Source of the DNA: Thermoplasmata archaeon
Lineage (GTDB): Archaea > Thermoplasmatota > Thermoplasmata > UBA10834
NCBI GenBank assembly: GCA_041554135.1
Contig: JBFFML010000004.1
Span: 37,340-101,339 of the forward strand
Length of the DNA: 64,000 nt
Direction of reading: 5' to 3'
Below are positions 17,867-59,532 of this stretch, piece after piece. The first letter of the stretch is position 1. Every line of letters starts with the position of its first letter. Both the position numbers and the translations under genes were made by a program. The notes below the pieces were generated by a model. That model had not been told where the DNA came from. It was given only the letters and a program-made list of their open reading frames with translations, and made no database searches.

Positions 17867-20800
17867 TCATGCAGAGTCCCGGTCGACGCCTCTCCTGCCT
17901 CTCCCAGACCGCCCGCGGGCGACGGCGAATATCATCATGATGAACAGCACTGGGACGAGGACGTCCGAGAACTCGGGTATCTTCTCGAATATGACCTCGA
18001 CGTTCGAGGTCGTGTTCTGCGTCCACTGCATGCATATGTTCTGCCAGCCGGAGACGGCATACACCGAGGTCAGGTGCGACTTCGCGTAGGAGTTCTGCTC
18101 GATCGTCACCCACGCCCATGAGCCGCTCGCGTTCTTCTTCACGAACACTTGGTTCGAGATGTCCTGCAGCCACATCGCGTACAGATTCCCCGTCGCCGTG
18201 TCGAGTGACAAGGTGGGGCACGTGTGGCCTCGCGTGCTCGACTCGTTGAGCGGCAAGGCCGACGACCAGCCGCTGCCATTGTTGTACGCGTAGTTGATTG
18301 TGGCCCTCAGCTTCCCGCCTACCTGGTCCCCCGTCCCGTAAACGACGTGCAGCACGCCGTCGCCGTCGACGAGGGCCGAGGGTGGCGCAAGGTCCGTGTT
18401 CGCTGTGCTGGCCCCCGCGGCGTACACGACCGTCGGTGTGCTCCATGCGGAACCGCCGTTGCTCCTGCTGTAAACGGCGCCGTCTGAGCCGTAGACTGCC
18501 CACACGGCTACGCCAGACCCGGCCTTCCCCGGAACTATCACGGCTTTGCTGTTCGTCGCCGCGGACCATGGGCTCAAGAGGTCTCCCTTGTAAGACCATG
18601 TGCCCTCGACATCGTCCACGGCGGCACTCTGGTAGGTCCAAAGACCGAACTGGGAGTTGGTTGAGTGCTCGCGCGAGGTCGCGGCGATCCAGAGATATCC
18701 GTTCGAGTCCTTGCACATGAATGCGTTCTTGCCGCCTGTCGCGTACGCGGACACGGCAAGCGTGGTCTCGTTGCCCCAAGTTATGACGGCCGTCACCGGG
18801 TCGACCGAACCGCGGCGCACGTGGATGTCCGTCGTGGAGGACGCTGTGTCGCCCACCGCGTAGACGACCTTGTTGGCGGTATCGTACCATACGCTCGTCT
18901 CGTTCACGCCCGCGATCGAGTCGAAGACGGCCCCCGCGCTCGTCCAGGAGACACCGCCGTCGGAACTGCTGGCGTAGACGGTGTCCGTGCCGTCCCAGTA
19001 GAAACTCCAGAAGTTGGTGCCGTCATGGAACAGTTTCCGCTGATACGACATGGATGTGGCCCAGTTGGATGCCATCGACGTGTCGACGACCCAGCCACGC
19101 AGGTCCGCCTCTGATGCCAGCGCCAAGGAGGACGCGCTGGCGAGCAACGGGTCCACCATCGCCATGTCCGTCCTGCCCTTCCAGTCCGTCGCCTCGACCA
19201 CGAACTCGAAGGCGCCGCCGTCGCCGAATGCCGCCGAGGGCAAGCTGATCTCCATCTGACTCGCATCCTTGGCAACCGATATCGTCGTGAATGTGAGCTT
19301 CCACTCCCCCTGATCGTAGTCGAACAGGTACTCGGTCAGCACCTCGCCGAACTGACCTACGACCTCCACCATCTGGTCCGCGCCGATCGTCCTCGAACCG
19401 TACGATAGCGGATAGCCGGTCGCCACCGAGGCGTCGCTGTCGACGAATATCCTGATGTAATCCTCGCCCGTCTTCCTCTGGGGCGCGACGGGCGTGCCAC
19501 CGCCGCCGCCTGAGGGCTTGGCCTTCAAGGACGGCACGTAAGCGCCGCTACATATCTCCCCCGCGACGCTCACGTAGAAGAACGACAGGCCTGTGTGGTT
19601 CGTCCCCGCCACTTCCGCTATGTCGATGTTCGCGTTCTCCACGGGCTCGGCGTCTGAGTCGCTCAACAGCAGGTCAGACCAATCCGCGAACGCGCCGTCG
19701 ACAATCACGAAATCGGGAGCGGAGTCCACATATCCAGTGCAAGGTTCGCCATAGACCTCGCTGTGAGCGAACGTCCAGTCCGACGCGACGGTGTCAATGG
19801 CTACCGAGCACAGCTCTCCAGGGGATGACAGGGACAGGTCGGCGATGACCTGGATGACATAAGGGTCGTCCATGGGACCGATCGTGACGCCGTCACCCAC
19901 GGACGGCGAGGTCGTGACATCGTCGTCGGTGAACGCCAGGGACCGCACAGTCCCGCTCGAGCCCTGGCAGCTCAGGGTCAGCCGCAGTACCGCGACCTCA
20001 GTCCCAGACGCGACCACTCCGCTGCTTGGAACGAGCGATTCCTGCTTGACGACCAGCACGCCACCCTCGTGCGGCGTCTCGTAGCTCACCGCGCGGCGCT
20101 CGAGTTCGTCCTGAGACATGAGCAGATATCTGACCTCCTGAGTCTCCAGGGCGCTCGCGAACACGGCCTTGGCCTCTAGCTGTGAGCCTTCGACACTATG
20201 CGTCAGAGAACCCATCTGTGCCCAAGAGCTCCAGTCTCGGCCGTCGTCCGAATCGAAACTCATGATCGTTGCGGACTCGATCGCGCCGTCCCAACCGTCT
20301 AGCTCGAGCATGTAATCGGCCCCGAGCGATCCGACGACATAGCCGGACGAGGATGAGCCGTCCGAGTCGATGAACAGGTAGAAGCTGCTCACGAGCGACG
20401 AGCCCATGGCATCCCCTCCCGTCTCTATGTACATGTAGAGGTCGTTCGCGTCGATGTGCACGGCCCAACGCTGCACGTCGACCGAAGGGGCGGAGGCCGC
20501 GGATGTCTTCATCGTGTAGGCGTCGACGTCGGACCAGTCCGAGAAGTCGCCGTCGATACTGAACGCCTCCGAATCCGTCCTATAGGCGAAGTAGATGAAT
20601 GTGGGGAGTATGATCAGGACGGCCACGAGCACGGCGAGGAATGGCCATCGTGTGATGATAGGGTATCTCTTGGTGCGGCGCGCTCCCGCTCCGCCACGCG
20701 TCCCGTTGATCATCCCTGTGCCGTTCACCATGCCAGTGCCGTTCACCATGCCAGTGCCGTTCACGATGCCTGTGCCGTTGACCCGGCCCACGCCGTGGTC

Positions 20801-21298
20801 GCGCGGCTCCACCAGCGTCGTCGTGACGGCCTCTGGCGGCGGGGAGGGCTCCTCTTCCTCCTCGGGCATAAACGACCGGTCGAGCAACGACTCCGCCAGC
20901 TCGGGCTTCTCAGCCTCGAACGTTACGCTACAGCTGGGGCACTTGCTGGCGCCCGCGGCGACTACGGCCCCACACTCGGGGCACTCGAGCTTGTCGTCCT
21001 CGGTGGCGACTGGCACGCCGCACCTCGGGCACTTGACGACACCCGCCTCGATAGCCATTCCACACGAGGGGCAGGAGATCCCGGCATGCGGAAGCGGCAG
21101 GCTCTCCTTGTCTGCGTCGAGGAACTCCCTCTGGGCTTGTTCGGCCTGCAGCCGTTGCATTAGCCGCTTCTCGATGACCTGGTCCATCTCTCTCCTCGTC
21201 AAGACCGTCTCGAGCCGCGTGCCACAGAACGGGCATCTCTCGGAGTCGGAAGGTACCTTGTTGCCGCAAAGGGGGCAATATAGAAGCTCCCTGTTCAA
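17867..21298 (-). CDS. 1143-aa membrane protein: three N-terminal cytosolic zinc ribbons, one TM helix, large extracellular region with BNR/Asp-box repeats, PEF-CTERM-like anchor
   Basis: Ribbons are CPLCGNKVPSDSERCPFCG, CPSCGMAIEAGVVKCPRCG and CPECGAVVAAGASKCPSCS. The basic stretch RRTKRYPIITR precedes the TM helix WPFLAVLVAVLIILPTFIYFAY. There are two DG-F-DWSD modules. Asp-box-like motifs are SSDGGVSW, SNGGSAWS and NNGSGWSS. The C-terminus is IPEFSDVLVPVLFIMMIFAVARGRSGRGRRG. Confidence 0.75.
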   Translation of the reverse strand: MNRELLYCPLCGNKVPSDSERCPFCGTRLETVLTRREMDQVIEKRLMQRLQAEQAQREFLDADKESLPLPHAGISCPSCGMAIEAGVVKCPRCGVPVATEDDKLECPECGAVVAAGASKCPSCSVTFEAEKPELAESLLDRSFMPEEEEEPSPPPEAVTTTLVEPRDHGVGRVNGTGIVNGTGMVNGTGMVNGTGMINGTRGGAGARRTKRYPIITRWPFLAVLVAVLIILPTFIYFAYRTDSEAFSIDGDFSDWSDVDAYTMKTSAASAPSVDVQRWAVHIDANDLYMYIETGGDAMGSSLVSSFYLFIDSDGSSSSGYVVGSLGADYMLELDGWDGAIESATIMSFDSDDGRDWSSWAQMGSLTHSVEGSQLEAKAVFASALETQEVRYLLMSQDELERRAVSYETPHEGGVLVVKQESLVPSSGVVASGTEVAVLRLTLSCQGSSGTVRSLAFTDDDVTTSPSVGDGVTIGPMDDPYVIQVIADLSLSSPGELCSVAIDTVASDWTFAHSEVYGEPCTGYVDSAPDFVIVDGAFADWSDLLLSDSDAEPVENANIDIAEVAGTNHTGLSFFYVSVAGEICSGAYVPSLKAKPSGGGGGTPVAPQRKTGEDYIRIFVDSDASVATGYPLSYGSRTIGADQMVEVVGQFGEVLTEYLFDYDQGEWKLTFTTISVAKDASQMEISLPSAAFGDGGAFEFVVEATDWKGRTDMAMVDPLLASASSLALASEADLRGWVVDTSMASNWATSMSYQRKLFHDGTNFWSFYWDGTDTVYASSSDGGVSWTSAGAVFDSIAGVNETSVWYDTANKVVYAVGDTASSTTDIHVRRGSVDPVTAVITWGNETTLAVSAYATGGKNAFMCKDSNGYLWIAATSREHSTNSQFGLWTYQSAAVDDVEGTWSYKGDLLSPWSAATNSKAVIVPGKAGSGVAVWAVYGSDGAVYSRSNGGSAWSTPTVVYAAGASTANTDLAPPSALVDGDGVLHVVYGTGDQVGGKLRATINYAYNNGSGWSSALPLNESSTRGHTCPTLSLDTATGNLYAMWLQDISNQVFVKKNASGSWAWVTIEQNSYAKSHLTSVYAVSGWQNICMQWTQNTTSNVEVIFEKIPEFSDVLVPVLFIMMIFAVARGRSGRGRRGVDRDSA
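20699..20782 (-). repeat. 18-bp tandem coding repeat (about 4.5 copies) encoding (NGTGMV)n
   Basis: The + strand reads gtgccgttcaccatgcca repeated with minor variants. The protein reads VNGTGIVNGTGMVNGTGMVNGTGMINGT at residues 173-200 of the 1143-aa protein. Confidence 0.8.
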
Positions 21299-34153: not shown

Positions 34154-34399
34154 TCATCCGCCGCTCACAGGCGGGAGGAACGAAACCTCATCCTGATCCT
34201 TCAATACCAGGCTGGGTGGGCCGTATTCCTTGTTCACGGACAGGATGATGTGGTCTCTGTACTTTGCGATACTCGGAAATCGCTCCACATACTGATCGAG
34301 GAGCATCTTTACCGTCGTGCCCTCACTCAGCTCGAGTTCCTCTTCCTTGCTACCGACGATCTCTCTGAACGATGCGAACAGCTTCACGCGGACCTTCAT
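34154..34399 (-). CDS. MoaD/ThiS-family ubiquitin-like small protein (SAMP-like), C-terminal GG
   Basis: 81 aa. MKVRVKLFASFREIVG...VSFLPPVSGG matches the typical beta-grasp MoaD pattern and ends in a diglycine. Confidence 0.75.
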   Translation of the reverse strand: MKVRVKLFASFREIVGSKEEELELSEGTTVKMLLDQYVERFPSIAKYRDHIILSVNKEYGPPSLVLKDQDEVSFLPPVSGG

Positions 34400-34868: not shown

Positions 34869-37800
34869 ATGTCAGCCGAACCACACCAACCATCAGGGAA
34901 TGCTGTCCACTCCACGGACAATGAATCGAAGATAGGACGGGGTTGGAATGTGGAGCCGCAGATAGGCGCGAACGCAAGGACGGTACTAGAGCGACGCTAC
35001 CTGAAGAAGGGAGAGGACGGCAAGGCCGCGGAGACGCCACGCCAGTTGTTCGAGCGTGTCGCACAAGCGATAGCCTCCGCAGAGGAGAGATATGGCAAAT
35101 CGGCCAAAGAGAGGGACGAGATTGCCGCTCGGTTCTACGAGATGATGGCCCGTCAGGAGTTCATGCCGAATAGCCCTACGCTCATGAACGCTGGCAGGGA
35201 GTTGGGACAGCTATCGGCGTGTTTCGTCCTTCCTGTGGGCGACTCGATGGAGGAGATCTTCGACTCCATCAAATACACTGCCCTCATACACAAATGCCTC
35301 GTCCCGGAGACACTGGTGATGACCGACTCCGGATGCATGAACCTCGGTTCGGTACGGAACGACACATGGATTGAGACGCACGAGGGCATGGACCAGGTGA
35401 TTGAGAACCACGACAACGGCATCCAGAGAGTCATGACGGTGGAGACGGACGAAGGGTACTCAATCACTGGGACGCCGCAACACCGCCTGATGACGGAGCA
35501 GTCTGGAAGGGAACTCGAGTGGAAGCAGATGGGTGATCTTGAGGAGGGGGAGACGCTCATCATGAAGCTCGGAGGATGGCTGGGCGGCACACTTCACAGC
35601 GTCGAGCGCGACATATCGGACTTCTCCGACTCTTTCGACGAGAGCGTGGTAAGAGCGGATGAACGCGCGCTGTGCGAATTCCTCAGGAACGCATTCACAG
35701 GGCACGGATGGGTGACCGACGAGGGCATCGTTCGACTGGAGCTGGACTCCGAGAGCGTCGCCCGGGAGCTTCAGGTGATCCTGTTCTATGTCGGAGTGCC
35801 CACGCACAGGGACGGCCCGAGCCTGACCGTGTGCACAGCTTCGGGGTTCCAGACGTTCAAGGAGAAGATAGGCTTCGACTCAATGCTCCTCTCGCGTAGG
35901 CTGGCGGGCGTTGGTCCCGACGACGTCCTGCCGGGCCTCAGGGCCGCAGAGGTGGCCCACGAAGAGGCGGACGACCAGGGGTTCTACAGAGTCAAGGTGA
36001 AGCGCGTGACGACCTGTGGCGACAGAGGCGTAGTCGACCTCACAGTGAAAGGGAGTCATGCATACCTGGCCAACGGTTTCGTATCTCACAACAGTGGTGG
36101 AGGGACGGGATTCAGCTTCTCGCGCCTCCGACCGGCGAGGGACTGCGTGAAGAGCACCGCAGGCGTGTCGAGCGGTCCGATCTCCTTCATGGAAGTCTTC
36201 AACACCGCGACCGAGACGATCAAGCAGGGCGGCACCCGCAGGGGCGCCAACATGGGCATACTGAGAGTCGACCATCCGGACATACTCGAGTTCATCACGT
36301 GCAAGCGAGACAGTACCAAGCTGACGAACTTCAACATATCAGTGGCGCTCACGGACAGGTTCATGAGCGCCCTCGAGAGGGACGAGGAGTACGACATGGT
36401 CAACCCCAGGTCCGGCGAGGTCGTGTCGAAGATGAAGGCCAAGAAGGTCTTCGACCTGATCGTCAACATGGCATGGCGGAACGGCGAGCCTGGGATCGTC
36501 TTCATAGACAGGATAAACAGGGACAACCCGACGCCGTCGGTCGGCGAGATCGAGAGCACCAATCCCTGCGGGGAGCAGCCGCTCCTGCCGTACGAGTCCT
36601 GCAACCTCGGCTCCATAAACCTCGCCAAGATGATGAAGATGCAGGACGGGCGCGTGGTCGTGGACTACGACCGGCTGAGGGAGACAGTCCATTTGGCCGT
36701 CCGATTCCTGGACGACGTGATAGACGTGAACAAGTACCCGTTGGAGCAGATTGACCACATGACCAAGGCCAACCGGAAGATCGGCCTTGGGGTGATGGGC
36801 TTCGCGGACATGTTGCTGCACATGGGCGTACGCTACGACTCCGACGAGGCTTCGGGCCTTGGCGGTGAGCTCATGGCATTCATAGACGAGGAGGGGCACA
36901 GGGCCTCCCAGGAGCTGGCGGACGAGCGTGGGAGTTTCCCCAACTTCGAGGAGAGCACCTTGTCCAAGCGGTATGACAGGTTGCGCAACGCGACGGTGAC
37001 GACGATAGCCCCCACCGGCACCATAAGCATCATCACGGGGGCGTCCAGCGGCATAGAGCCCATATTCGCAGTCGCCTATGTCCGGAACGTAATGGACAGG
37101 GACATCCTCCCGGAGGTCAATCCGATATTCGAACAGATGGCGAAGGAGCGGGGGTTCTACTCTGAGGACATGATGAAGGAGATCGCGGCCCAGGGCTCCG
37201 TCAAGGACGTCAAGGGCGTCCCTGAGGATCTCAGGGAGCTTTTCGTGACCGCCCTGGACATAACGCCCGAGGCGCACGTCCGGATGCAGGCCGCCTTCCA
37301 GGAACACACCGACAACGCCGTCTCCAAGACGGTCAACTTCCCAAAGGAGGCGACGACCGAGGACGTCGAGCGCGTCTACATGCTGGCCCACAGACTCGGC
37401 TGCAAGGGCGTGACGGTTTACAGGTACGGCAGCAGGGACGACCAGGTACTCAGCGTCGGAGACGGCGCTGCCAAGAAGGGGGCCGAGGAGGGCGACGGGA
37501 AGGCTCAGGAGGACGCCCGCGCCCCCAGACCGAGGCCCTACAGGACGACTGGCACGACACAGCGGATCGAGACTGGATGCGGACACCTGTATGTGACGAT
37601 CAACGAGGACGAGAACGGCCTCTGCGAGGTGTTCACGCAGATGGGCAAATCGGGGGGATGCACGGCCTCGCAGTCCGAGGCAATAGGCAGGCTGCTGTCG
37701 CTGGCCCTCAGATCCGGGATCGACCCGGAGTCCATAACCAAGCAGCTGAGGGGCATAAGATGCCCCTCGCCGCTCTGGCAGCCGGGCGGTATGGTGCTGT

Positions 37801-38030
37801 CGTGCAGCGACGCGGTGGCCAAGGCGCTCGACCGGTACGTGAACGAGCGCTCATCACGGGTGGGATCGACCGCGAGTCCGCCCTCTGGCCTGGATACCGC
37901 CACCGTCGAGAAGCAGAACCATGTCGACAGGGGGGACGTGTGTCCCGAGTGCCCGGAGTGCGGGAGCATGGTGGAGTACGTCGAAGGATGCGTCGTCTGC
38001 AGGACCTGCGGATACTCTCGCTGTTGGTGA
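34869..38030 (+). CDS. nrdJ: Class II (adenosylcobalamin-dependent type) ribonucleotide reductase, intein-containing, with C-terminal zinc ribbon
   Basis: Extein motifs NSPTLMNAG, ACFVLPV, GGGTGFSFSRLRP, STNPCGEQPL and TIAPTG. C-terminal CPECPECG...CVVCRTCG. The extein is 787 aa once the 266-aa insert is removed. Confidence 0.9.
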   Translation: MSAEPHQPSGNAVHSTDNESKIGRGWNVEPQIGANARTVLERRYLKKGEDGKAAETPRQLFERVAQAIASAEERYGKSAKERDEIAARFYEMMARQEFMPNSPTLMNAGRELGQLSACFVLPVGDSMEEIFDSIKYTALIHKCLVPETLVMTDSGCMNLGSVRNDTWIETHEGMDQVIENHDNGIQRVMTVETDEGYSITGTPQHRLMTEQSGRELEWKQMGDLEEGETLIMKLGGWLGGTLHSVERDISDFSDSFDESVVRADERALCEFLRNAFTGHGWVTDEGIVRLELDSESVARELQVILFYVGVPTHRDGPSLTVCTASGFQTFKEKIGFDSMLLSRRLAGVGPDDVLPGLRAAEVAHEEADDQGFYRVKVKRVTTCGDRGVVDLTVKGSHAYLANGFVSHNSGGGTGFSFSRLRPARDCVKSTAGVSSGPISFMEVFNTATETIKQGGTRRGANMGILRVDHPDILEFITCKRDSTKLTNFNISVALTDRFMSALERDEEYDMVNPRSGEVVSKMKAKKVFDLIVNMAWRNGEPGIVFIDRINRDNPTPSVGEIESTNPCGEQPLLPYESCNLGSINLAKMMKMQDGRVVVDYDRLRETVHLAVRFLDDVIDVNKYPLEQIDHMTKANRKIGLGVMGFADMLLHMGVRYDSDEASGLGGELMAFIDEEGHRASQELADERGSFPNFEESTLSKRYDRLRNATVTTIAPTGTISIITGASSGIEPIFAVAYVRNVMDRDILPEVNPIFEQMAKERGFYSEDMMKEIAAQGSVKDVKGVPEDLRELFVTALDITPEAHVRMQAAFQEHTDNAVSKTVNFPKEATTEDVERVYMLAHRLGCKGVTVYRYGSRDDQVLSVGDGAAKKGAEEGDGKAQEDARAPRPRPYRTTGTTQRIETGCGHLYVTINEDENGLCEVFTQMGKSGGCTASQSEAIGRLLSLALRSGIDPESITKQLRGIRCPSPLWQPGGMVLSCSDAVAKALDRYVNERSSRVGSTASPPSGLDTATVEKQNHVDRGDVCPECPECGSMVEYVEGCVVCRTCGYSRCW
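35295..36092 (+). mobile_element. Intein (266 aa) inserted between ...ALIHK and SGGGTGFSF...
   Basis: Block A CLVPETLVMTDSG and block B ITGTPQHRLMT. A single LAGLIDADG-like motif, FLRNAFTGHGWV. Terminal block VVDLTVKGSHAYLANGFVSHN is followed by +1 Ser. Coordinates were derived from residue counts (143-408). Confidence 0.85.
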
Positions 38031-53653: not shown

Positions 53654-56600
53654 TTGGCGGGCAACTATCTTAAGAGCCTACAGCTCCAGAAGCAACTCGA
53701 GCAACGCGCCAAGGAGGCGGCGAAGAGCAAGAGGGTTGCTGAGGAGGAGCGGGAGGCCCTCGAAGGCTTCCTAGAGACCTGCAAGGAGAGTGATGTCGAC
53801 CTCTCAGGCACCGACAGGCTCCTCAGCGAGTTCTCGGCGTCCATGAACGCCAAGGATTATCAATCGGCGATCGGCCTCGCCCGCAAGGCGATCGAGGCCG
53901 CGAAGAGCGCATACCTGCAGAAGATATCCGATGTGGCCGACTCCGTCGATTCGCTGTTGAGACTCATCAAGGGCGACGAGGGAGAGGCAGGCAGCGCGAA
54001 GGGGATCCTGGAGAACAGCAAGGAGCTGGCGCTCAAGGACGACCTCGAAGGCGCGATGAAGAAGGCCAAAGAGGCGTACAACTCGGCGGAGAGGGCATTC
54101 CACGAGCATTTCTCCGCGAGGCTCTCCCAGGCCCAAGAGGTCATCAACCAGGCAAGGGAGATGGGTGAGGACGTCAGCCTTTTCGAGGACCTCGTGACCA
54201 GGTCCAAACACGCGTTGGAGAAGCAGGAGTACGAATCAGGCATATCGCAGCTCACGGAGGCGCTCGAGGGCGCCGGGGAGAACCTGAAGTCGCAGATAGA
54301 GGACGGCATCGATAAAGCGGAGGACCTCACGCGCGCAGGCGAGGGCATCGGCGCCGACATGGACAGGGTCAAGGGCCACACCGAGAGGGCCAAGAGCGCC
54401 CTGGAGACGCTCCGATACAGGGACGCCCTCAGCTATTCCAAGAGAGCCTCCAGCGAGGCCGAGAAGGCAATCTCCAACCAGCTCGGCGACATGACCAGGG
54501 ACATCAAGGAGAGCATGCGCTCGATGAACACGCTCGACGAGGACTCGCGCGAGACGAAGGCACTGCTCGACGAGGTTCAGGACGCCGTCAAGGAGAAGCG
54601 AGTGCAAGAGGCGATCGAGAAGTTCAACGAGGCCAAGGACAAGATACACAGGATCCATTTCCAGACAGTACTCGGCGTCATAGGCAAGGCCAAGGACAAG
54701 TTCGTCCTCGCCAAGAAGGTGGGCGTCGACATGAGCGACGCGATCAAGATGCTGAACGCCTCGAGGGAGAACCTGAAGAAGGGCATGTTCGAGGACGCCA
54801 TAAGGATGGCTGAGGAGAGCGAGGACGCGGTCGAGAAGGCGCTTCAGGTGTTCTACAGGGCGCGCGACGAGCTCGTCGAGCTCAGCAAGGCGATGAAGAC
54901 CGCGAGCGACCTCGGCCACGACGTAAGCGAGTACAAGGAGCTCCTCGTACAGGCCAAGAAGGCGTTCGGGAAGAAGGATTTCGAGGCGTCGTCGAAGGCA
55001 TCCTCGGAGGGTACCGCGAAAGCGAGGAAGGTCATCTACGACGCCGCTTTGGCCAAGACAGAGGAGGCCGACAGAATCATCAAGCTCGGCATAGGGATAG
55101 GCGCCGAGGTGACCGGAGCGGAGGATATCCTCCGCAGGGCTACGGAAGCCATGCCAGGCGAGAACCTCGCCCAGGCGGTCTCGCTGGCGGAGGAGAGCGC
55201 CTCAGCGGCGAGGTCCGCTGTCTCATCGTCGCTCACGGAGAGGCTTGGCAACATAGAGGATTTCGTCGGGGGCTTCGCCCAGGAGGACGAGGTCGTCGAG
55301 AGGGTGCGTGGACTGCTCGAGGAGGCCAAGTCGCATTTGGCCAAGAGCGAGTTCGAGGATGCGCGTCGGCTCGTGCAGGAGATAACCTCCAGCCTCGAAG
55401 GCATGGGCCAGGAGGAGAGCGAACGGCTTGTCGCGGCAGCGCGCGACAGGATCGATATGGCGAAGTCCATAGGTGTGGAGCCGAAGGAGCTGGAAGGGCT
55501 CGAGGAGGGCATGACGCTCGCCCAGGGACAGATAGATAAGAAGGCCTACGAGGAGGCCATCTCCAGGATCAAGGCCGTGGTGAAGGCCGCGGACGACCGT
55601 ATGTTCAAACTGCTACAGGCTGAATTCTCCTCGGTCAAGGACTCGATCGAGGAGGCGAAGACCTTCGGGATCGACGTCAGCGACGCCAGGGACAGGCTCA
55701 AGGACGCCCGGGCCAAGGCGGAATCCCGCGAGTTCGCGGAGGCGCGCGAGATATGTGTCGGGACCAAGGACATCATCGACGAGAAGATAACCAGACACGA
55801 CGACATCAAGAAGAAGATCGAGAGGGCCGAGGAGCTCATACAAGAGGCGTCGAAGAACATAGTCGACGTGTCCAGCCTGACGGATTGGCTGGACCAGGGC
55901 AAGCGGGCGTTCTCGGACGGTCAGCTGGACCAGGCCGAGGCGAAGCTGGACAACACGATCGATGAGACGGAGAAGCGCCTCGCCATGTACCTTGCCGCGA
56001 AGTTCATACTCGCGTCCAAGGAGAACCTGGACCTCGCGACCTCCCATGGCATCGAGGCGGGCGAGGCGGAATCCCTCCTGGTGAAGGCGAAGGAGGAGAT
56101 GAAGAGCAAGGACTACGACGAGGCGCTGGAGCACAGCAGGAAGGCGAGCGAGCTCGTCGCCGCGGCCTTGGCCGATGGTGTCGGCAACATCGTCCAGGAC
56201 TTGCGCAGGATGATCACGGACGCGAAGAACGTCAGCATAGACACCTCAGGCCCCGAGAAGCTCGTCGAGAAGGCGGCGGGACTCATCGGCGGCAAGGACT
56301 TCGCCGGGGCGCTCGCGTGCGTGGACTCGGCGAAGGAGGACATCGACCAGGCAAGGAGCCTGAGCTCCAACGCCGCCGCGGAGATAAAGACCGCGAGGAA
56401 CAACCTGAAGGAAGCCGAGATGCTCAGCATGGAGGTCGGCGACGCCCGCGAGAAGCTGGACCAGGCGATCGAGGCCCTCACGAGGCATCAATACGCGATA
56501 GCCCTCGAACTGGCCAGGAAATCCTCCGAGGCTTCCGTCGAGGCCGCGAAATCGGCCGTCTGGAAGACGCTCGAGGAATTCAAGGCCAAGGTGGACAAGG

Positions 56601-58177
56601 CATCCGAGGAGGGCATGCCCGTCGGCAAGGCCGACAGATGCGTCGCGGACGGCGTAGAGGCGTTCAAGGCCGGCAGATACGAGGAATCGCTCAGGTTCGC
56701 CATGCAGTGCGAGGTCGAGATGGAGCGTGCGGAGCTCCAGAAGGAGATAAGCACCAGGGCCGTGGAGAACGCCCGGCGGAAGATGGACGACGCCACGGCG
56801 GAAGGCATCAAGGCGGACATGGCGATATCGGTCGTCGAGGCTGCCGAGGAACTCCTCGCAAAGGGCAAGTATCCGGAGGCGCTCACGGCGGCGATCGACA
56901 GCGGGGACGTGCTGCACGAGATAAGGGAGAGCTTCGACAGCGCTCGGATAGCCTTCGGCGCTGCTAGGGAGCAGATAGAGAGGCTGAGCAAGGTCAACAT
57001 AGACACCTCCGAATGCGACAGGATCCTGCTGACCGCCAACGAACAGCTCTCGGCACAGGACTTCGACAAGTTCCACGACACCCTGGCGATGTGCTCGACG
57101 AAGGCTGGGGCGTTGTTCGAGGGATCCATAAGCGCCCTCGTCGACGAGACGAGGGAGTTGATATCGAGGGCCAAGTCGATGGGCATAAACACGAAGGGTT
57201 GCGAGGACCTGCTGGAGGTGGCGCAGACCTCCCTCTCCGAGAAGCTCTGGGACTTCGCATATCAGCAGGCGCAGGATTGCAGGGCGAAGTGCGGCGAGCT
57301 GATCGACAAGAAGCTCGGCGGGCTCGCCCGGGAGGCGGAGAGCCGGCTCGACGTGCTCGGCCACCTCGGCACGAGCGTCAAGACGATCAAGAAGGAGATC
57401 GAGAAGGCGAAGTCGCTGGGAAGCTCCGGCGACCATGTGAAGACCTTCGAGACACTCATGGGCATCGACCAGGAGATAGCTCTCCTGGAGGAGTCCAACA
57501 AGAAGTACGTGGACATATCCATAGCCGCGGAGAGCGCCATAGAGAACCTGCGGAGCTTGGGCGGCTCGGTCAAGGAGGCGGAGAGGCTTCTCGCCCTGGC
57601 CGACCTCGAGAAGGAGAAGGACTACGACTCCGCGATAGAGATGGTCGCCGAGGCCCTCGACACGGCCCAGACGGACATCGAGACGTTCGCGCCGGACATA
57701 GGCCTCTCGATAGAGTCGGATGGGCTGCAGGAGGGGGCGAGGGGAGAAATCGTCATAGTCCTTCGGAACGAGGGCAAGGCCGCGGCGAGATCCGTCAGAG
57801 TGGACCTGTCGGGTGAATTCGAGGTCGCGGACATATCGGACGTCCCATCTCTGGAACCAGGCAAAGAGGGACGAGTGGTCGCGGGCATCGTCCCGAAGGT
57901 CCAGGGCGAGCTGTCCATCGACGCGGCCGTCTCGTCGAAGAGACCGTTCGGCGCCACCACGGACACCTTCGAGCTGCAGGGGAAGCTCAACGTGTATCCC
58001 GCGGGACCCCCGTTCAAGATATCCCGCGCGAAGGATGTCTCCCGATGCCAGCTATGCCACGGCAGAATAAAGTCCGGGTTCGACATAGTGTCGTGCAGGT
58101 GCGGCACGGACCTGCATCTGATGTGCGCGAAGAGATCGCAGAGCTGCCCGGTGTGCGGTCAGAGGTTCGAGTTCTAG
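53654..58177 (+). CDS. Giant (1507 aa) alpha-helical repeat protein with C-terminal beta-sandwich (CARDB-like) domain and C4HC3 zinc finger
   Basis: TTG start with aaggag about 12 nt upstream. There is no signal peptide or TM helix. About 20 degenerate units look like G[IV]D[VT]S-x7-10-A[KR]-x2-[LF]-x2-[KR][DE][YF]-x-[EDS]A. Then comes GEIVIVLRNEGKAAARSVRVDLSG...LEPGKEGRVV. The protein ends CQLCHGRIKSGFDIVSCRCGTDLHLMCAKRSQSCPVCG. Confidence 0.7.
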   Translation: MAGNYLKSLQLQKQLEQRAKEAAKSKRVAEEEREALEGFLETCKESDVDLSGTDRLLSEFSASMNAKDYQSAIGLARKAIEAAKSAYLQKISDVADSVDSLLRLIKGDEGEAGSAKGILENSKELALKDDLEGAMKKAKEAYNSAERAFHEHFSARLSQAQEVINQAREMGEDVSLFEDLVTRSKHALEKQEYESGISQLTEALEGAGENLKSQIEDGIDKAEDLTRAGEGIGADMDRVKGHTERAKSALETLRYRDALSYSKRASSEAEKAISNQLGDMTRDIKESMRSMNTLDEDSRETKALLDEVQDAVKEKRVQEAIEKFNEAKDKIHRIHFQTVLGVIGKAKDKFVLAKKVGVDMSDAIKMLNASRENLKKGMFEDAIRMAEESEDAVEKALQVFYRARDELVELSKAMKTASDLGHDVSEYKELLVQAKKAFGKKDFEASSKASSEGTAKARKVIYDAALAKTEEADRIIKLGIGIGAEVTGAEDILRRATEAMPGENLAQAVSLAEESASAARSAVSSSLTERLGNIEDFVGGFAQEDEVVERVRGLLEEAKSHLAKSEFEDARRLVQEITSSLEGMGQEESERLVAAARDRIDMAKSIGVEPKELEGLEEGMTLAQGQIDKKAYEEAISRIKAVVKAADDRMFKLLQAEFSSVKDSIEEAKTFGIDVSDARDRLKDARAKAESREFAEAREICVGTKDIIDEKITRHDDIKKKIERAEELIQEASKNIVDVSSLTDWLDQGKRAFSDGQLDQAEAKLDNTIDETEKRLAMYLAAKFILASKENLDLATSHGIEAGEAESLLVKAKEEMKSKDYDEALEHSRKASELVAAALADGVGNIVQDLRRMITDAKNVSIDTSGPEKLVEKAAGLIGGKDFAGALACVDSAKEDIDQARSLSSNAAAEIKTARNNLKEAEMLSMEVGDAREKLDQAIEALTRHQYAIALELARKSSEASVEAAKSAVWKTLEEFKAKVDKASEEGMPVGKADRCVADGVEAFKAGRYEESLRFAMQCEVEMERAELQKEISTRAVENARRKMDDATAEGIKADMAISVVEAAEELLAKGKYPEALTAAIDSGDVLHEIRESFDSARIAFGAAREQIERLSKVNIDTSECDRILLTANEQLSAQDFDKFHDTLAMCSTKAGALFEGSISALVDETRELISRAKSMGINTKGCEDLLEVAQTSLSEKLWDFAYQQAQDCRAKCGELIDKKLGGLAREAESRLDVLGHLGTSVKTIKKEIEKAKSLGSSGDHVKTFETLMGIDQEIALLEESNKKYVDISIAAESAIENLRSLGGSVKEAERLLALADLEKEKDYDSAIEMVAEALDTAQTDIETFAPDIGLSIESDGLQEGARGEIVIVLRNEGKAAARSVRVDLSGEFEVADISDVPSLEPGKEGRVVAGIVPKVQGELSIDAAVSSKRPFGATTDTFELQGKLNVYPAGPPFKISRAKDVSRCQLCHGRIKSGFDIVSCRCGTDLHLMCAKRSQSCPVCGQRFEF

Positions 58178-59532
58178 CCTGAGCCACCGATCCTCGCCTT
58201 GGATATCCTCAGCGGGGGCGTGAGCACACCGAAGGCCTGTCTCGGTTCCGAGCCGATCATGTCCACTCTCGACAGCAGCTCGGTCACGTCCAGGCCCATG
58301 GTAGCTTGCCGGACCGCGGGGCCGATCGCGCCGTCCTTGACGACATAGCCCTCCATCATCAACGCCGAGAGCTCGCCCGTCGCAAGGTTGGGATAATCGA
58401 AAGTCAACCGGAGGTACACGCCATCCGAGCATTCCCGGATCATCTCCTCCGAGGAGATGTCTCCGCTCTCCACGACAAGGTTCGAGAAGGAGATGCCTGG
58501 CGGATGTCGGAAGCTCCAGACGGCACCGCCCCTTGACGAGTTGCCTGTGTTGTCGACGGAGTCCTTTCCCGCGGTGTATGAGTCGTGGAGATATGTGCTG
58601 AGGACGCCCCGATCGATGACGGCCTTGCTCTTGGACGCGACACCCTCGCCGTCGAACGAAGAACTCCCGGACGACCACGGCAGCGTCGGGTCATCATGGA
58701 TGGACAGAGCGTCAGCTCCCAGAGGGGTCCCCAGCCTGCCCGCGAGGAAGCTCCTGCCCCTCTGTATGTTCTCGGCGTTGGCGCCGCCGCCGATCGAGCT
58801 CGCAAGTATCCAGGCCGCTGCTATCGGGTCGAGTATGACTGGGTGGTCTCCGGTCTCCACCTTCGTCTGCCGGAGGCCGCTGATAGCGTGGCGCATGGCG
58901 CTGCCGCCAACGCTCCTGGGGGAGCTCCTGTCGAGCTTCCTGCCGGACGCGAAGTCGAGGCCTGAGAACATCTGCCCGTCCGAGCGCGCGACGGCCTCAG
59001 CCATCACGTCATACGCGGTGACCTTCTGGTCCACGAGCAGGCCGTTGGTGTTGGCGAGCGCCACCTCGCTCGCCGCGACCATCAGCGAGGCGTTGACCGA
59101 CGATATCCTGCTGTCGGATGCCGCCTCGTCCGCCAGCTCGATGAGGAGCTCGACGGCCTCGTCCGGTTGCAGGCGCGCCGTCGACGCGTCATAGAGGCCG
59201 TCCTGGGGAGAGGGCTTGCCAGGGTCTGGGAGCCCTTTGAAGTCTTCGTCGGCTGTGCCTCCCCTCGCCTGAGATATCGCCATCTCCGCTGCCCGGGTGA
59301 CCTCCCTCTCGTCGTGGCTCGTGCAGTACGCGAACCCCGAGCTTCCGCGGTCGAACACCCTTATGGCCAATCCAGGGTCGTCGGAGAAGCTCGCCTGCTT
59401 CATGGAGCCCCTCTCGATCTCGGCTGTCGTGGCGTGTGTGCTCATGGCGAGGACGTCGCAGATGACGCCTCCCAACGAGCGGACCCTGTCCACCGTCCTC
59501 CCGGCGAGTTCTGACATCTCGTTCATTGGCAC
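58174..59532 (-). CDS. pmbA: PmbA/TldE-family metalloprotease modulator subunit
   Basis: TldD/PmbA-fold sequence without an HExxxH motif. It lies directly downstream of the tldD-like gene, which is the usual pairing. Confidence 0.75.
   Translation of the reverse strand: MPMNEMSELAGRTVDRVRSLGGVICDVLAMSTHATTAEIERGSMKQASFSDDPGLAIRVFDRGSSGFAYCTSHDEREVTRAAEMAISQARGGTADEDFKGLPDPGKPSPQDGLYDASTARLQPDEAVELLIELADEAASDSRISSVNASLMVAASEVALANTNGLLVDQKVTAYDVMAEAVARSDGQMFSGLDFASGRKLDRSSPRSVGGSAMRHAISGLRQTKVETGDHPVILDPIAAAWILASSIGGGANAENIQRGRSFLAGRLGTPLGADALSIHDDPTLPWSSGSSSFDGEGVASKSKAVIDRGVLSTYLHDSYTAGKDSVDNTGNSSRGGAVWSFRHPPGISFSNLVVESGDISSEEMIRECSDGVYLRLTFDYPNLATGELSALMMEGYVVKDGAIGPAVRQATMGLDVTELLSRVDMIGSEPRQAFGVLTPPLRISKARIGGSG

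Follow-up and report, generated by a model that had tools for sequence, protein, structure and literature searches.

The DNA analysed here is a window of 64,000 nucleotides on contig JBFFML010000004.1 of a Thermoplasmata archaeon, and the gene in question is a giant open reading frame (ORF) of its forward strand, which encodes a protein of 1507 amino acids (aa) with a zinc-finger motif at its very end. A long array of degenerate helical repeats, an immunoglobulin (Ig)-like domain, a conserved linker and the finger follow one another along this protein (Table 1). The stop codon comes directly after the last 43 residues, CQLCHGRIKSGFDIVSCRCGTDLHLMCAKRSQSCPVCGQRFEF, in which the potential ligands are spaced C-x2-C-x12-C-x-C-x4-H-x2-C-x6-C-x2-C, that is in C4HC3 order, the ligands being C1465, C1468, C1481, C1483, H1488, C1491, C1498 and C1501. 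The motif and its spacing were thus found exactly as the initial annotation of this DNA had given them. The last Cys of the finger lies 6 residues from the end of the protein, and the tail behind it carries a [FY]-x-F motif which is conserved in the family of this protein.

Table 1. Parts of the giant gene and the ubiquitin-type gene cluster of the same genome; positions are those of the window, except for the cluster, which lies on another contig (C2) of the genome (G000).
Feature	Position	Strand	Basis
Whole gene, 1507-aa protein	53654..58177	+	ORF list; homologues of 1504-1507 aa back the start position
About 20 tandem degenerate alpha-helical repeats, ~62 aa each, aa ~59-1346	53654..57691	+	Self-profile iteration
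Ig-like beta-sandwich (CARDB-like), aa ~1349-1448	57698..57997	+	Pfam CARDB, AF2, Foldseek
Conserved linker G-P-P-F-K-I-[SA]-R-A-x-x-V-x-[RK]	57998..58045	+	Alignment of 12 homologues
RING finger (Prok-RING_1 type), aa 1465-1507	58046..58174	+	Pfam PF14446, ligand conservation, AF2, Foldseek
E1-Ubl-E2-JAB cluster, genes on the same strand	G000:C2:26809-29067 (L012:6810-9068)	all genes on one strand	Pfam and ORF reading

The C-terminal 168 aa were searched against 5.8 billion clustered proteins and 11 full-length homologues were obtained, which were 58-72% identical over these 168 residues; nine of them were 1504-1507 aa long, and those with an organism label came from Thermoplasmata, Thermoplasmatota or Methanobacteriota archaea. 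All eight ligands were invariant in the 11 homologues, together with G11, K14, a G-F-D triplet, R23, the A-K-R after ligand 6 and the P after ligand 7, and the ligands were invariant as well in 114 non-redundant relatives (21-71% identical, alignment A3). Given this invariance, the alignments show a real motif at the right place, which is under selection and not a product of chance.

The finger profile was also searched against 15 billion proteins, with one representative taken from each 50%-identity cluster (1.84 billion searched), and 294 proteins were matched at an expect value (E) of 1e-3 or less. The signature of this wider family could be written as C-x-[IV]-C-x-G-x-[IV]-K-x-G-[LF]-x4-C-x-C-G-x2-[YL]-H-x2-C-A-x-R-x3-C-P-x-C, and the 12/1/4/H/2/6/2 spacing was present in 151 of the 185 fingers classified by spacing. 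These fingers were located at the C-terminus of proteins of about 1450-1650 aa, in arrays of 2-9 copies, or in small proteins. The ligand order CCCCHCCC was found in 195 of 213 domain matches, so degenerate copies were too few for a pattern of ligand co-loss to be read from them. Many orthologues outside the family of the window's protein extend 15-25 residues past the RING and end in KKxALK[IL](G) before the stop (loci L027-L032, L037, L039, L045, L050, L051 and L057). This tail is basic and hydrophobic, is absent from the window's protein, and looks like a short linear docking motif.

For the class of the finger, the initial annotation had proposed an eight-ligand cross-brace type with RING-CH or PHD likeness and, as alternative, two sequential zinc ribbons, and had suggested a search with hidden Markov models and a structure prediction for telling them apart. 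The best profile for the isolated 43 aa was Prok-RING_1 of Pfam (PF14446; 34.7 bits, E=1.7e-8, gathering score 29.1) and not an ordinary zinc ribbon, and weaker matches to zf-C3HC4_2, zf-RING_2, zf-C3HC4_3 and zf-RING_5 came after it. The Prok-RING_1 score varied with the context, being 33.7 bits for a 48-aa piece, 28.4 for 168 aa and 23.7 for the full protein, the last two below the cut-off, and this drop is probably why the public annotation of these proteins is patchy. In a Pfam scan of the 114 relatives, Prok-RING_1 was matched by 105 (E<=0.01), zf-RING_2 by 101 (best E=2.4e-8) and zf-C3HC4_2 by 55. Against the sequences of the PDB the finger profile gave weak matches (E>0.1), over half of which were RING ubiquitin ligases (E3s).

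The fold was predicted with AlphaFold2 (AF2). When the C-terminal 175 aa were modelled with 12 close homologues, the CARDB-like domain was confident, and the finger reached a predicted local distance difference test (pLDDT) value of 55-60; when the finger was modelled alone with the 114-sequence alignment, a pLDDT of 92.4 was obtained for the 48-aa model. Two strands (residues 19-21 and 27-29) and a helix (30-36) were predicted for the 48 aa, with a CxxC knuckle, a hairpin that holds ligands 3 and 4 in its turn, and the H-x2-C at the N-terminus of the helix. This is a treble-clef layout, from which cross-brace rather than sequential ligation would follow; zinc site 1 is predicted to be composed of ligands 1, 2, 5 and 6, and site 2 of ligands 3, 4, 7 and 8. 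In a Foldseek search of the PDB the best 50 matches of the model were all RING E3 domains (probability 0.91-1.0, template modelling (TM) score 0.52-0.75, root-mean-square deviation (rmsd) 2-3 A for most), RNF4, RNF165/Arkadia, RNF12, RNF13, RBX1, APC11, HRD1 and gp78 being included; their E-values, from 7e-3 upwards, were modest owing to the very small size of the domain. By its profiles and its modelled fold, the tail of the giant protein is a genuine binuclear cross-brace RING finger of PF14446, which would bind zinc. The cross-brace part of the earlier proposal is supported, and the finger belongs to a prokaryotic family that had been catalogued before; it is not a eukaryote-like oddity, a RING-CH or a PHD.

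Two independent ribbons or knuckles, formed in sequence by ligands 1-4 and 5-8 as a common archaeal decoration without RING-type function, are therefore a very improbable description of the motif: zinc-ribbon families were matched by at most 3 of the 114 relatives, against more than 100 for the RING models, the AF2 helix that starts at H-x2-C is a treble-clef feature incompatible with a ribbon, and an invariant His as ligand 5 with fixed x1 and x4 spacings is a RING feature. What speaks for ribbons is that CxxC ribbons are frequent in archaeal proteins, several multi-ribbon proteins being present in this genome too, and that the 43 aa gave partial ribbon matches (LysW ribbon, E=0.009 over 11 residues) and a weak match to the Rad50 hook. 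A PHD- or RING-CH-like domain, which would act as a reader of a peptide tail or as a ligase on a membrane substrate, is improbable also, though to a slightly lesser degree, and the RING-CH/PHD likeness seen in the initial annotation found no support. It could draw on the C4HC3 ligand order and on weak PHD (PF00628) matches, which for the 43 aa covered only the first 32 residues (12.8 bits, gathering score 24, E=0.13) and were found in 13 of the 114 relatives at E<=0.01 (best E=1.3e-3). RINGv (PF12906), in turn, was not among the matches listed for the 43 aa at E<=10 nor among the 25 families listed for the 114 relatives, which mostly matched Prok-RING_1 and zf-RING_2, and no PHD, RING-CH or zinc ribbon occurred among the best 50 Foldseek matches. 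Both RINGv and PHD have a longer loop between ligands 6 and 7 than the x6 found here (over 10 residues in RINGv), and in RINGv the His is preceded by x7, against x4 here. The C4HC3 order itself is typical of prokaryotic RINGs according to a review (PMC11354881).

Upstream of the finger, self-profile iteration gave 20 repeat matches with a period of about 62 aa and a consensus of roughly G-x-D-V-S-x4-L-L-x2-A-K-x-A-x4-Y-x2-A, which by their composition are predicted to be helical. No relative of the whole protein was found among PDB sequences at E<=1, and one homologue is labelled 'TPR repeat protein' by JGI. The CARDB model of Pfam matched the 168-aa C-terminal piece with 23.6 bits (cut-off 22.7), AF2 predicted eight strands for this region with a pLDDT of about 90, and Foldseek returned the CARDB domain of PF1109, MG domains, adaptin ear/GAE and TRAP-beta, none of them specific. 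In the linker, the G, P, P, K, I, R and A positions were invariant across the 12 homologues, and the AF2 confidence was low. The protein is acidic, has 17 cysteines in total with 7 of them inside the C-terminal 43 residues, and its highest 19-residue Kyte-Doolittle mean was 1.14, which means that no transmembrane segment was present; it is probably cytoplasmic.

The genome to which the window belongs (1.69 Mb, 40 contigs) was found to encode the other components of a ubiquitin-type system. A cluster on contig C2 contains genes for an activating enzyme (E1), a ubiquitin-like protein (Ubl), a conjugating enzyme (E2) and a JAB/Rpn11-like peptidase. The E1 belongs to the ThiF family (145 bits), the Ubl has 79 aa, ends in PDPEGG and gave weak ubiquitin and YukD matches, and the peptidase carries HSHPGH...SGTD. 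The E2 is of the UBC type (PF00179, UQ_con, 45 bits against a cut-off of 27), carries FHPNIMPPEDGGYVC and has an intact HPN...GGYVC. No RING-like ORF was found in the operon or in the 8 kb to each side of it. Upstream of the operon are M29 peptidase and MttB-like genes, and a 399-aa protein with no Pfam match and a hydrophobic stretch at its end is encoded downstream. The initial annotation had also pointed to a SAMP/MoaD-like gene at 34154-34399, which was confirmed (minus strand, 81 aa, ending in VSGG), and had stated that nothing links it with the finger. The statement stands for this gene, which lies 19 kb away, and no longer describes the genome, where the E1-Ubl-E2-JAB operon is present on another contig.

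Cognate E1, E2 and Ubl for a RING ligase thus occur in the same genome, and since the operon has no RING gene of its own, the giant protein is a plausible ligase or docking partner for it. In this reading, the long helical scaffold would carry at its tip, next to the Ig-like domain, a RING that docks other proteins, and the most likely client of the RING in this genome would be the E2 of contig C2 charged with the 79-aa Ubl. While the RING holds this E2~Ubl, the repeats and the Ig-like domain might hold substrates or position the complex, and the giant protein would act as an E3-like ligase or adaptor. For this whole chain, in which the E2 binding and any ligase activity are read from the gene content and the fold, we see about an even chance.

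The distribution of both partners was followed in 151 genomes of the same archaeal class and in 14 well-known control genomes. The finger type was present in 117 of the 151, in most cases as the last part of an open frame of 1450-1650 aa; with a curated Pfam family in addition, it is not the prokaryotic rarity for which the initial annotation took it. A UQ_con-type E2 above the Pfam cut-off was found in 76 of the 151 genomes and in none of the 14 controls, the genomes of family f4 having up to four E2 copies with stronger scores (82-84 bits). In eight genomes of the sister family f16, from at least 4 genera, one contig holds both an E2 match and, about 5 kb from it, the RING end of an orthologue of about 1460 aa. 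Sequence was fetched for four of the loci (G136, G015, G048 and G077; L021:9003-9689, L022, L023, L024). The orthologue is 21-25% identical to the giant protein over 1100-1500 aa, and that of G136, the one scanned against Pfam, showed the same architecture of repeats, CARDB and Prok-RING_1. In the four loci the giant gene is divergent from the E2 gene at a distance of about 200-400 bp; the latter is a Ubl-E2 fusion in G136 by Pfam, with matches of the Ubl part also in G015, and its E2 part is 31-35% identical to the E2 of the window's genome. A small Cdc48-N-like ORF and TrkA/TrkH genes were observed near the f16 E2 genes. Family f11 (G035, G010 and G023; L067, L068 and L069) had frames of about 1500 aa homologous to the repeats without CARDB or RING, from which it appears that the C-terminal module can be lost; judging from these sequences, f11 has lost the CARDB-RING module or never gained it.

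Genome-level co-occurrence was considered as a link between the two partners and rejected. All 76 E2-positive genomes have the RING type; the signal vanishes at the level of families, since the RING occurs almost throughout the class and was present in 15 of 15 E2-positive families and in 12 of at least 14 E2-negative ones.

Besides this rejected signal, a number of observations weigh against a role of the giant protein as E3 for the C2 operon. No ubiquitin-related gene was found among the neighbours of the giant gene, hence no local linkage exists in this genome, and the E3 could instead be one of two paralogues that share the RING type: in the first (G000:C7:14261-15301; L013:2262-3302) about six zinc ribbons come after an N-terminal RING, and the other (G000:C14:29942-31804; L014:2943-4805) is a membrane protein composed of an extracellular domain, transmembrane helices, RING, ribbon and DUF835. 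The HPN was kept in 4 of 4 f16 E2s, but three of them have Y, H or K in place of the catalytic Cys and in the remaining one the Cys is shifted by one residue, and therefore this neighbourhood speaks for binding and not for catalysis. The giant RING gene was not found next to the E2 cassettes of family f4 in the 20-kb regions of G059 and G029. In 41 genomes the RING occurs without a detectable E2, among them G144 (same genus, single contig), G013 and G066 (99%-complete, single contig); the E2 of the window's genome gave no match in these three even at E<=1, and their fingers keep all eight ligands. Prok-E2_A and Prok-E2_B gave no match in the E2-less genomes, and none in any control genome either. 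When 18 E2-negative and 20 E2-positive orthologue fingers were compared, no visible difference appeared at the E2-contact positions.

Among the points against is also the mixed picture given by the contact residues. In the small archaeal RING protein srfp, E2 binding and activation involve a hydrophobic residue at position C1+2, a Pro after ligand 7, a Trp or hydrophobic residue in the helix and, behind ligand 8, a linchpin R/K (PMC5654768). The window's finger has L at C1+2, where close orthologues often have S or H; it has the Pro after ligand 7, a position that varies across the class; its helix carries a near-invariant Arg and no Trp; ligand 8 is followed by G in place of the linchpin, with R at +3; and compared with eukaryotic RINGs the helix that separates ligands 6 and 7 is shorter by four residues. 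By this comparison of sequences, the canonical E2-contact residues are only partly present.

The giant RING is kept in E2-less genomes, so it must have a function that is independent of this E2. This leads to an explanation in which the RING fold is true and works without any E2, with a part in structure, dimerisation or partner docking through which the giant scaffold is assembled or anchored, the link to the Ubl operon being secondary or absent in this organism. Because the finger is kept in lineages without E2, this explanation is almost as probable as the E3-like role, though it falls somewhat short of an even chance. The intact RING of G144, G013, G066 and G021 and of the whole families f3, f10, f13, f14, f18 and f25, all without E2, fits it, as do the likeness of the conserved finger positions in E2-negative and E2-positive orthologues and the catalytically dead E2 as partner in f16. 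The extreme C-terminal position of the finger with its aromatic tail, and a RING dimer of RNF4 as the best structural match, would agree with a dimerisation module, although dimerisation of the finger is only a guess. According to Burroughs et al. 2011, as cited in PMC4029887, the roles of prokaryotic RINGs are not in every case related to ubiquitin. Against an E2-independent module stand the intact-E2 operon without a RING gene in the genome itself, and the adjacency to E2 genes in at least 4 genera, which is hard to explain without a physical interaction of RING-E2 type; moreover, the E2-less lineages may have lost just one of several clients.

The finger resembles several known systems in part. 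Prok-RING_1 proteins are associated with transmembrane helices and/or ubiquitin-system neighbourhoods. The family is said to have been defined by Burroughs, Iyer & Aravind in 2011 (Mol BioSyst 7:2261). The window's finger is alike in its profile score above the gathering score, in its C4HC3 order and in its size of about 45 aa, and the two paralogues of this genome fit the described context, that of C14 being membrane-anchored. The described members are small proteins associated with transmembrane helices (PMC4029887), whereas the protein that ends in the window's finger is soluble and has 1,507 aa; it has no transmembrane helices, and its gene has no ubiquitin-system neighbours, while the C14 paralogue has the helices and the f16 orthologue adjoins a Ubl-E2 gene.

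The srfp operons of Caldiarchaeum subterraneum and Asgard archaea (PMC5654768, PMC3082918) share with this genome an archaeal RING together with E1, a GG-ended ubiquitin-like protein, an E2 with HPN-Cys and a JAB/Rpn11-like peptidase, and the Caldiarchaeum cascade of E1, E2 and small RING works in vitro (PMC5654768). The hydrophobic residue between the first two Cys and the Pro after ligand 7 are common to srfp and the window's finger. The srfp proteins are small, encoded in the operon and of RING-H2 type (C3H2C3), with a Trp and a linchpin Arg that were shown to matter; the window's finger is of C4HC3 type, without canonical Trp or linchpin and without operon linkage, and stands, as a candidate ligase module, on a scaffold of 1,500 aa.

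With the eukaryotic RINGs of RNF4, RNF165/Arkadia, RNF12 and MDM2, which rank among its best structural matches, the predicted fold could be superposed at TM scores of 0.6-0.75 and an rmsd of 2-3 A over 46-55 columns, the MDM2 RING giving an end-to-end sequence alignment. RNF4, MDM2 and the IAPs also have their RING at the extreme C-terminus with an aromatic tail, as in the window's protein. The identity to eukaryotic RING E3s was 18-32%, and ligand 4, a His in C3HC4 and RING-H2 fingers, is a Cys here.

Most eukaryotic ubiquitin ligases have the RING finger as their hallmark, and the debate on archaeal ubiquitin has centred on Aigarchaeota and Asgard archaea; to our knowledge, working archaeal cascades of E1, E2 and RING have been shown so far only for the Caldiarchaeum-type operons. 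Marine Group II is now placed in Thermoplasmatota. RING genes (zf-RING_2 and RINGv) were counted in one single-cell genome of this group (Grau-Bove et al. 2015, PMC4327156), in a survey of domain counts that does not contain the giant architecture, its class-wide distribution or the E1-Ubl-E2-JAB operon. In an incomplete literature search, which did not include the family-founding paper, no paper was found on the giant repeat/CARDB/RING architecture or its class-wide conservation, nor on an E1-Ubl-E2-JAB operon in half of the class. The finger is ordinary for Prok-RING_1, and what appears to be new is the giant architecture which it caps, class-wide.

The genome would lend itself to asking cleanly whether ubiquitin-type tagging is E3-assisted in a euryarchaeon. 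If such tagging is true, the origin of scaffolded RING ligases would shift outside the eukaryote-proximal archaea; if not, the family would show what RING fingers do without ubiquitin chemistry. A further step can be imagined, in which the giant protein, a scaffold of 1,500 residues in place of a small RING protein, is the E3 of a vertically inherited Thermoplasmata pathway of E1, E2 and RING, distinct from the Aigarchaeota and Asgard operons and decayed in some lineages, where the E2 was lost or a dead Ubl-E2 fusion still docks on the RING. We regard this step as speculative and rather unlikely; if it is true, scaffolded, substrate-positioning RING E3s evolved in euryarchaea, outside the lineage leading to eukaryotes.

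Around the giant gene, Hel308, Cgi121 and two FTCD genes were found upstream, and PmbA/TldD and histidine ammonia-lyase (HAL) genes downstream in convergent orientation. The downstream set was conserved in 3 of 3 relatives examined and the upstream set in 2 of 3. This context was considered as a functional clue and set aside, as it gives no hint in spite of its conservation. The stop of the giant gene overlaps by 4 nt (58174-58177) with that of the convergent PmbA/TldD-family gene (58174-59532, minus strand); the same tail-to-tail overlap of stops was present in the loci L010 and L011 of relatives, and in L009 the two genes abut with no overlap.

Elsewhere in the window, a 1143-aa protein with several N-terminal ribbons (DZR, Zn_ribbon_1/3) is encoded at 17867-21298 on the minus strand, and its remaining part of about 1000 aa had no Pfam match. 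At 34869-38030 on the plus strand, a ribonucleotide reductase large subunit was identified, which contains an intein (Intein_splicing, aa 182-408) and a C-terminal TSCPD domain.

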